From a virus (Duplodnaviria; Heunggongvirae; Uroviricota; Caudoviricetes), in IMG/VR virus record IMGVR_UViG_2826849342_000003: DNA of 17,599 nucleotides; one strand, written 5' to 3'. Shown piece by piece: positions 1 to 3,000 of the stretch (the first letter of the stretch is position 1; each line of letters begins with the position of its first letter). A program made the position numbers.

Positions 1-3000
1 CAGAATGGTGCGCTCAAACTGCCCGGTTTTTCCGCGTTAATGCGAAAATAGGTGGAAAGTTCCATCGGACAGCGCACGCCTTTAGGCACATAAATAAACG
101 TACCGTCAGAGGCTACCGCCGCATTAAGTGCGGCAAAGAAGTTGTCATTCCCCGGCACCACGGTGCCGAGATATTTACGCACCAGCTCCGGGTGATCGTG
201 GATCGCCTAAAGCGAGCAAAATCATTTGATACCGTTTTGAATTTTTTTTGATACCACCCAAAACGGCACAACGAAAAATTATTTGATACTAATCGGGAGT
301 GCTTTTAGGGTATGGCTGAACCTTGAATAGCTTAGTATTTAGCCGCTTCCTTGCTCGCTTGTTCAGGAACCTGATGTAGCGATACTGATTAAATTTGTGC
401 ACCACGGCACGCTCTTTATTAGCCCGTAAATACACGCCTCGTTGTCCACCTCGCTTCATCGCGTTCATCGTTATCTCGTGATACCACTCACCATCCAGCT
501 CGTAGAATGTGCTTTCATGGCTGCCAATAAAATCAAAATTTGACGCCTGATACACAACGCCAGCACGTCCGCAGCGTTCGTCTGCAAAAGACTGAACCCA
601 CTCCACTGACGGATACAGTAACCTTATGGTTTTCAGTGCATAACTGATGGCCCGTGATTCAGAGTTGCGGGGCATGTTGTCGTGTAGCCACATGCGGTTC
701 AACTCCATATAGCCCCGGTTATCCGTTTCAAGCACGACACGACGACCTGAGTTGGGGTTAAGGGCATATCCCCACTGGAGAACGCCAACCAGATCGCGTC
801 CGCTGAATACTCCCAGGTGGAGGTAAGAGTTATTCACAAAACGGCGGGAATAGTGCTTTGTCTGAATAATTGTGCGGGCCAGCCAGCAGGATATGGTTTC
901 AACGTGCAGCTCCTTTGAACCATAGCCAACAATCTGGCCTTCATACTCAATAACACACGGTTTCGTCAGAATGCGTGATTTTTTCTCTTTTCCCACAATG
1001 TTTCTCCGTGGGATGCTCGCAGGCATTCAGCATTATGATGTGACGTTTGCAACGCGGACACCTGATTTCAATGTGATCAAAGGAATCCGCCTTAAATAAC
1101 AGTTTGTTGCAGTTTTTACAGCGAATTGATTTCATCTCACCTCCTTTGCATCAATTCGCCACTATCTTAAAAAACATCGTGGGTTGAGTGTGGTTATTGG
1201 GGCATAATCGATCTATATTACCGATCGATTTGATTGATTCGATCGTCGTTTTCTATATGTGTTCGTTTGGCGGGGTGTTTTTTATACAGCGTTGACAGGG
1301 CCACATCGTAGATCAATGCGACCTGCTTGCGGGGGATTCCTTGTGCTAATAAACGCCCGGCCTGCTCCCATTCCGCTTTGGTTAGTTTAGGTGGTCGCCC
1401 ACCGATACGGCCTTTATTTCTGGCAGCAGCAAGTCCAGCCATCGTTCTCTCGATGATTAGTTCTCGTTCCATCTCAGCCAGGGCACCCATAACGTGGAAG
1501 AAAAAACGCCCCATTGGAGATGACGTATCAATACTGTCAGTAAGACTGCGAAAATTAATCCCTCGCTCTCGTAATTCCCCTACGAGAGAAATCAAATGTT
1601 TCATGCTTCGCCCGAGGCGATCCAGTTTCCAGACAACCAGTGTGTCACCTTTTTGAAGACGCTTTAAAGCGCGTTTTAATCCAGGTCTGTCTGTCCTTGT
1701 TCCGCTTAATTTATCTTCAAATATTTGTTCACATCCTGCACAAACAAGAGCGTTTCGTTGCAGGTCTGTATTCTGGTCATTTGTTGATACCCTTACATAG
1801 CCAATCAGCACTCTGGATCTCCCGTTTAAAAACGCAAATCATGCCATGCAGGCCGGAAACAGCCATTATCTAAAACCTCGGTTTACAGGAAACGGTAAAT
1901 CAGGCTTCTGGCGCATTACAGAAAAACCAGAACGGCGCAGATATTCCAGGAAAAGATACCTTCACCAAAAATATTGGTGCCTGTCGCGCATATAGCGCAT
2001 GGGTGGATATTGGTGGCGATAGTCAGGTCTGGACAACTGCGCAATTTATTTCGTGGCTGGAGAGTCAGGGGGCATTTAACCATCCTTACTGGATGTGCAA
2101 AGGCTCATGGGCTTATGCAAATAATAAGGTCATTACAGATACAGGTTGCGGAAATATTTGTCTTGCAGGTGCTGTTGTGGAAGTTACTGGCACTCGTGGC
2201 GCAATGACCATACGCGTTACCACGCCGGGCACGTCCAGCGGCGGCGGAATCACTAACGCTCAATTCACCTATATTAATCATGGTGATGCTTACGCTCCTG
2301 GCTGGCGACGAGACTACAACACGAAAAACCAGCAGCCTGCATTTGCTTTAGGGCAAACAGGAAGCAGGGTTGCAAATGATAAAGCTGTTGGCTGGAACTG
2401 GAATAGCGGTGTTTATGATGCAGATATCAAAGGCGCAACAGCATTAATCCTCCACTTCAATAAGAATACGGGGAGCTGTGAGGTGTACTGGCAATAGCGG
2501 ACACTACCATTTGTTCTTTTTTTAAGCAGCCATCTGATGATATTTTTCCCTGAAGGCTGCCGGGGAGATATTCCCCAGACGAGAGTGACGACGCTGACGA
2601 TTGTAGAAAATCTCAATGTATTCCCGTATTACTGAGATGGCTTCATCCCGGTTATTAAAACGATAGTGGCTCAGGCTCTCATTTTTCAGCGTTCCCCAGA
2701 AGCTTTCCATCGGAGCGTTGTCGTAACAGTTACCTTTACGCGACATTGATGTTTTCAGACCAAACTGCTCCTGTATGACCCGGTAATCGTATGCGCAGTA
2801 CTGTGAACCTCGATCAGAGTGGTGGATTAGCCCGGCAGGTGGGCGCTGGCTCCTTAGCGCCATAAACAGGGCTTTACCTGTCAGCTCTTTTGTCATGCAC
2901 TCTCCCATGGCGTAGCCGACAATTTCGCACGTATAAACATCTTTGATGCCAGCGAGGTACAACCATCCCTCCTGTGTGGCAACATACGTCAGGTCCGCCA

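Follow-up and report, generated by a model that had tools for sequence, protein, structure and literature searches.

A structurally intact and most likely silent com-mom module in a probable right-end remnant of a Mu-like prophage of Shigella dysenteriae type 1

The DNA studied here is the IMG/VR virus record IMGVR_UViG_2826849342_000003, a stretch of 17,599 nucleotides that is referred to below, in its full length, as the window. Close to one of its ends lies a segment of a Mu-like transposable phage (208-2478, 2271 bp; hereafter the stump), in which the right end of the element (attR end), mom, com, the mom control region, the invertase gene gin, a single gix site and the truncated tail-fibre segment S' follow one another in this order (Table 1). 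A preliminary description of this DNA had proposed a com-mom anti-restriction module here, and the proposal was borne out by comparison of the proteins. Mom matched its Pfam model PF25680 with E=4.2e-75 and 252 bits, against a cut-off of 27.1 bits, and Com matched Zn_ribbon_Com (PF10122) with E=2.7e-9; in alignment to Mu, Mom and Com were identical at 227/231 and 61/62 positions, respectively. The only solved structure that matched Mom was that of Mu Mom (PDB 8bv8, E=2.5e-156), and none of the NCBIfam models matched either protein.

Table 1. Features of the window, with their positions, strands and the basis or content of each assignment
Feature	Position	Strand	Basis or content
Flank, internal sufB fragment from ~codon 160	1-207	-	NCBIfam SufB NF008773, model positions 160-222, E=4e-34
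Right terminus (attR end) of Mu-like element	208-288	-	Three TTTGATAC repeats at 225, 247 and 282; terminal 5'-TAAAGCGAGC
mom, tRNA(Gly)-dependent adenine N6 modification enzyme, GNAT fold	289-996	-	GTG start as annotated in Mu, 235 aa
com, zinc-finger translational activator of mom	947-1135	-	62 aa, MKSIRCKNCNK...RCPRCK...
Translation-inhibition hairpin (TIS)	992-1012	-	CCCACGG...UUGUGGG; RNA fold; identical to Mu
Com target hairpin in mRNA	1013-1033	-	AUGCU...AGCAU stem, loop with CC-N3-GAG; RNA fold; identical to Mu
Pmom, weak activator-dependent promoter	1164-1194	-	Aligns with annotated Mu late promoter
Interrupted palindrome TTATGCCCCAATAA	1194-1207	-	Identical to Mu
Three GATC (Dam) sites, OxyR-binding region of mom control region	1210-1244	.	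Sites at 1210, 1223 and 1241
gin, serine DNA invertase of G segment	1218-1811	-	197 aa; Pfam Resolvase and HTH_7
Right inverted repeat (gix site), G-segment boundary	1866-1901	.	Transferred from D108 annotation and Mu G-segment boundary
Truncated S' tail-fibre C-terminal segment of G region	1943-2478	+	D108/Mu similarity stops at 2478
IS600, 1264 bp, truncates prophage	2479-3742	-	99.5% identity to annotated IS600 of E. coli NIID080884; Pfam rve, HTH_Tnp_1
Insertion-sequence copies	2479-3742, 5341-6108, 6108-7364, 8774-9554, 14927-16131, 16310-17080		
Restriction-modification methylase	10761-12284		Eco57I-methylase domain PF07669, 507 aa
Restriction-modification endonuclease	12281-13234		BsuBI/PstI domains PF06616 and PF17728, 317 aa

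Both borders of the stump could be placed by comparison with related phages and prophages. Mu, D108 and PhiR68_1 match the window at the DNA level from 275-305 to 2478, and the match to the Yersinia phages vB_YpM_5 and vB_YpM_6 and several prophages of Escherichia coli begins at 207-208. The match begins exactly at 208 in phage vB_YpM_5 and in four E. coli prophages, each of which sits in a gene of its own (mscM, glpT, a gene for an SDR oxidoreductase and, beside ppsA, one for a kinase/pyrophosphorylase), and this position is regarded as the terminus of the element because these five independent insertions or phage ends all begin matching there. At position 208 the matching prophages and the phage record open with TAAAGCGCGC, from which the TAAAGCGAGC of the window departs at one of the terminal 10 bp. 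The relatives with this end (vB_YpM_5, vB_YpM_6 and E. coli prophages such as those of 12A, WS1933D, FDAARGOS_1059 and JCKP02) share with the window, at 97-98% identity, everything from the terminus as far as gin, mom and com included; they are full-length, whereas the window keeps only the 2271 bp of the stump. At the other border the phage DNA stops within S' and is followed directly by a copy of the insertion sequence (IS) element IS600, on the far side of which lambdoid DNA is found. Among the parts that make up a complete Mu prophage (both ends, transposase A and B, late and structural genes), the window therefore holds just the stretch from the right end to S', and in comparison with Mu all that lies left of S' is gone, including C, the transposase and the structural genes. 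The absence of the rest of the Mu-like phage from the window had been stated before and is confirmed here.

Outside the terminus lies sufB, into which the Mu-like element has inserted near codon 160. In S. dysenteriae Sd197 the genes sufC, sufD, sufS and sufE lie downstream of the interrupted sufB. Neither sufA nor the 5' portion of sufB is found next to the insertion, and this strain has therefore probably lost the function of its Suf operon for iron-sulfur assembly. The stump is 100% identical to the chromosome of Sd197 (CP000034.1) over 2271 bp, and the exact Mom protein was found in two records only, those of S. dysenteriae Sd197 and strain 1617 (CP006736.1). The IS1 copy at 8774-9554 is absent from the matching locus of Sd197, and for this reason the window probably derives from another type 1 strain, or another assembly, than Sd197. 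Neither the study of the prophages of S. dysenteriae type 1 (PMC7819885) with its supplements, nor the SfMu paper, nor the Mu domain paper mentions mom or Mu in S. dysenteriae.

The gene order gin, control region, com, overlapping mom and right end is the same in Mu (AF083977, Mu_52, Mu_53) and in D108. The right end itself is unrelated to that of Mu. It reads 5'-TAAAGCG(C/A)GC, with a terminal TA as against TG in Mu (...TTTA-3' vs ...TTCA-3'), and the DNA from mom to the terminus TAAAGCG is likewise unrelated, the three TTTGATAC repeats standing where Mu has its transposase-binding sites. Yet the adjoining mom-com-gin block is 96-98% identical to Mu. The same right end occurs in the Yersinia phages vB_YpM_5 and vB_YpM_6 and in the E. 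coli prophages at their four different insertion sites.

With the GTG start the two open reading frames overlap by 50 nt. An in-frame ATG farther upstream extends mom to 289-1026 (245 aa), which is the form annotated in D108, and the overlap is then 80 nt. The cysteines of Com stand at positions 6, 9, 26 and 29 and form a CCCC zinc finger, so that both the spacing of the zinc ligands and the overlap with mom are as the preliminary description had given them. The sole change from Mu Com, R61C, sits in the disordered C-terminal tail; it results from base 955, the one position at which the com-mom overlap departs from Mu, and it is silent in mom. Mom is closest to that of vB_YpM_5 (232/235), and compared with Mu its C-terminus is four residues longer (KSTPD, of the vB_YpM_5/D108 type). 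The residues of Mom are numbered here from the upstream ATG, following a structural study of 2026 in which loss of the first 10 residues was tolerated and deletion of the helix-turn-helix (HTH)-like insertion (175-209) abolished activity (PMC13219725). All ten residues linked to activity (Y28, W48, H58, Y59, R111, S124, D149, R151, Y159 and W181) are present in the window, and the HTH-like insertion is retained with one conservative change, I190M. This change and R41H are the substitutions private to the S. dysenteriae Mom in comparison with its nearest relatives, and both also distinguish it from Mu.

The names given to these proteins in E. coli RefSeq records are not uniform. Com is called a 'Com family DNA-binding transcriptional regulator' by the annotation pipeline PGAP, even though the protein binds RNA and activates translation. 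Mom appears as 'hypothetical protein', 'protein mom', 'Mom family adenine methylcarbamoylation protein' or 'tRNA(Gly)-dependent adenine aminoacyltransferase Mom'.

The mom control region was compared in an alignment of window 930-1290 (minus strand) with Mu, D108, vB_YpM_5 and the prophage of E. coli 12A, in which the mean column identity was 99%. The three GATC sites span 35 bp, lie 75-109 nt upstream of the com ATG and fall into register with one another across the five sequences, so the triple GATC within 35 bp is indeed arranged as in Mu. When the window was simulated as a first-order Markov sequence, 21% of the simulations contained at least one cluster of three GATC in 35 bp, and the cluster is thus not rare by chance; it is meaningful because its columns are conserved with Mu, not because it is improbable. 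GATC sites 1 and 2 (1241 and 1223), which are overlapped by the 3' end of gin, form two PvuI sites (CGATCG) 18 bp apart. The interrupted palindrome downstream of the cluster we take to be the binding site of the Mu activator C. Also identical to Mu are the hexamers ACCACA (1189-1194) and TAAGAT (1164-1169), which are presumably the -35 and -10 elements of Pmom; they enclose a 19-nt spacer with a run of six T (T6). Pmom has been described with two PvuI sites 18 bp apart and the C site downstream of them, with a poor -35 element, suboptimal spacing, a T stretch and dependence on C, and as being repressed also by OxyR and Fis (PMC3378877). A scan of positions 150-1900 with the sigma-70 consensus detected no promoter, a result to be expected of Pmom that does not argue for its absence. 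The Shine-Dalgarno sequence and then the ATG of com follow downstream of Pmom.

From the GATC cluster to the com ATG there are three differences from Mu. Two are private to the window: position 1215 lies between the second and the third GATC, and position 1179, which reads C in place of T on the coding strand, lies in the promoter spacer. At the third position Mu stands alone, with the window and the other three sequences in agreement. Compared with the OxyR consensus, the window and Mu both reach a best score of 13/20, in a match that covers the GATC cluster. The change at 1215 was considered as a possible weakening of the OxyR site, and it leaves this score unchanged. In all, the three GATC sites, the C palindrome, the promoter hexamers and the T6 run are shared with Mu and D108, and so are the two hairpins of the mRNA, which are identical.

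Of these hairpins, the Com target carries CC-N3-GAG, the recognition motif of Com (PMC6483171), and the TIS lies directly 3' of it, hiding the Shine-Dalgarno sequence GGAG (1004-1007) and the GTG start (994-996) of mom, both as annotated in Mu. Folding of the RNA of 975-1062 yielded both hairpins, and the folding energy of the whole stretch was unexceptional (z = -0.6); the case for the hairpins is made by the fact that the sequence equals the experimentally studied RNA of Mu, not by the energy of the fold.

Judged by its parts, the com-mom operon is structurally intact and would be expected to work as in Mu. With the three upstream GATC sites methylated by Dam, OxyR would stay off the DNA, and phage C bound to the TTAT-N6-ATAA palindrome would recruit RNA polymerase to the weak promoter. 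Com, once translated, would bind its mRNA hairpin and so open the adjacent hairpin masking the ribosome-binding site and the GTG start of mom. Mom would then move glycine from Gly-tRNA(Gly) onto the N6 of adenine in S-A-S contexts, and the product would rearrange to N6-carbamoylmethyl-adenine, which blocks many restriction enzymes. The mechanism of the Mom reaction, glycine transfer and rearrangement to the carbamoylmethyl adduct, was solved only recently (PMC13219725).

In the G region, the invertase Gin is identical to that of D108 at 197/197 and to that of Mu at 192/193 positions. One of the two inverted gix repeats survives and its partner is lost, and because a single repeat remains the invertase is left without a local substrate.

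The activator on which mom depends was not found together with it. In a complete Mu, C is encoded about 25 kb from com-mom. Tblastn searches with Mu C and Mor in the window and in the 20.7-kb Sd197 locus gave nothing better than E ~0.5, and no cognate activator of the Mor/C family was present in the same element within the window, in agreement with the preliminary description. Expression of mom is toxic and Pmom is C-dependent (PMC3378877). As there is no C in the window and Pmom depends on C, the orphan com-mom is most likely transcriptionally silent, and the earlier suggestion that mom may be silent is a reasonable inference on the same ground (PMC3378877). Silence would also explain how a toxic mom can persist intact. 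Based on these results, the stump is best explained as the right-end remnant of a Mu-like transposable prophage in the chromosome of S. dysenteriae type 1, with com-mom most likely silent, an interpretation to which we give a probability of about 85%.

The second system to be accounted for is a restriction-modification (R-M) system, which the preliminary description had placed in one locus with the hypermodification system. Both of its genes are intact, and the proteins match annotated E. coli proteins at 485/489 (methylase) and 315/317 (BsuBI/PstI-family endonuclease) positions. The DNA of 10761-13234 aligns in full with that of the Shiga toxin (Stx) phage P13374 of E. coli O104:H4, at 99.4% identity, and it also matches about 98 phage records, nearly all of Stx-converting phages and without mom. 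Like EcoGIII, a PstI-like system on CTGCAG that is borne by Stx phages (PMC6602927), the R-M system of the window is a PstI-like system of the EcoGIII type, its presumed CTGCAG specificity being taken from that work. It occupies the same position next to cI as EcoGIII of the Stx2 phages (P13374), and it adjoins cI and cro in a lambdoid early region; EcoGIII of P13374 is located in a live Stx phage, whereas here the system is found in an IS-riddled lambdoid remnant, outside the com-mom module. The stump and the R-M genes are about 9.5 kb apart, and the DNA between them includes two IS600 and two IS1 copies. Counted from the stump, the first IS600 is followed by part of a lambdoid late region, by IS1 and by the second IS600, which has the opposite orientation and truncates a helicase gene; a further IS1 is inserted in the lambdoid early region between cro and the helicase. 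Since the R-M system sits in a lambdoid Stx-type remnant set apart by these IS copies, the two gene sets belong to separate prophages. The co-occurrence of restriction and hypermodification in the window is thus real, but the window is better not taken for a single defence and counter-defence locus; com-mom and the R-M system are derived from two unrelated prophages joined by IS activity, and their co-occurrence looks accidental.

The whole window carries six IS copies in 17.6 kb, namely two inverted IS600, three IS1 and one further element of the IS3 family. Between the IS600 copies, 3743-4732 is collinear with the region from Q to nanS-p (a carbohydrate esterase gene) of an Stx2a prophage, and about 30 bp replaces 1.8 kb with stxB, stxA and three tRNA genes, leaving a toxin locus without stx. 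The presence of stxAB between the IS600 copies was accordingly rejected; no open reading frame of that size occurs there, and the collinear segment of Stx2 phages is missing. The DEAD/DEAH-box helicase of the lambdoid replication region (7361-8023) is cut to 220 aa by the second IS600, its E. coli homologue having about 506 aa. A single CTGCAG (16485) occurs in the 17.6-kb window, compared with about four expected from its length, and none in the stump.

Some observations speak against a dead and silent remnant. The open frames of mom, com and gin, all kept in a genome filled with pseudogenes, could hint at retention. The window-specific changes at 1179 and 1215 fall in the control region and may affect its function. 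From its residues we infer that Mom retains enzymatic competence, and R41H and I190M, the latter within the essential HTH-like insertion, have to be set against this. Finally, the activator search behind the presumed silence covered the window and the 20.7-kb Sd197 locus. On such grounds the module could have been retained in a usable state, with mom activated in trans by a Mor/C-family activator of a resident or superinfecting Mu-like phage, or freed of C by a promoter change, so that a chromosomal Mom would modify DNA in the cell and help phages or mobile DNA that leave this host to escape restriction. Besides the intact genes and conserved catalytic residues, this would be favoured by the C palindrome, which is the same as in Mu so that a Mu-type C would recognize it, and by the spacer change at 1179. 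We consider it unlikely, as no activator gene was found in the window and overexpression of Mom is lethal (PMC3378877, PMC7261163), which makes constitutive expression implausible. Recent decay would moreover explain the intact frames equally well: mom differs from its nearest relatives by three non-synonymous and nine synonymous changes, most of which could predate the truncation, and the stump may just be young. Still less probable, and put forward as a speculation, is that the stump persists because it is useful even now, with a Mor/C-type activator from another Mu-like or an unrelated prophage of S. dysenteriae type 1 switching on the orphan com-mom, and a Mom without its phage modifying cellular and mobile DNA when required, possibly including the A of CTGCAG at which the neighbouring EcoGIII-type enzyme is directed.

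The same base is the point of departure for a functional link between mom and the R-M system, in which modification of CTGCAG by Mom would protect the host from its own PstI-like enzyme or modulate that enzyme. The A of CTGCAG stands in a C-A-G and thus an S-A-S context of the kind modified by Mom (PMC13219725), it is the base methylated by enzymes of the M.EcoGIII type (PMC6602927), and both gene sets are intact. Apart from this coincidence no sign of one functional unit was found for com-mom and the R-M system. The R-M system has its own methylase, Mu-like phages have mom without R-M genes of this kind, and our searches found mom and EcoGIII-type systems only apart; together with the different mobile elements, the position beside cI in P13374-like DNA, the many phage records without mom and the intervening IS copies, this makes such a pair very improbable, and a designed combination of restriction and anti-restriction was rejected because separate mobile elements with IS copies between them are involved. 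There is practically no chance that a complete, inducible Mu-like prophage continues beyond the module. The module is 96-98% identical to the live phages Mu, D108, SfMu and vB_YpM_5, which speaks in its favour, but similarity to every Mu-like genome ends at 2478 in S', with IS600 and then lambdoid DNA beyond, the other side at 208 is the terminus of the element followed by sufB, and Mu C and Mor were not found in the window. For the window this possibility was therefore rejected, its Mu-like DNA being bounded by the terminus and by IS600, and the right-end remnant with a silent com-mom remains the preferred interpretation.

The com-mom genes and their control by Dam, OxyR, C and Com are already known and belong to the textbook biology of Mu; they are met here in a decayed context, and beyond correct annotation the importance of the finding is slight. 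The locus does offer a clean case of an orphaned, fully intact module with a toxic gene that survives in the IS-riddled genome of a pathogen, probably owing to multilayer silencing that needs a phage factor now gone. It also advises caution, as defence genes beside counter-defence genes in Shigella can be an artefact of IS rearrangement. If the orphan mom were expressed, it would be a rare instance of host-resident 'momylation'.

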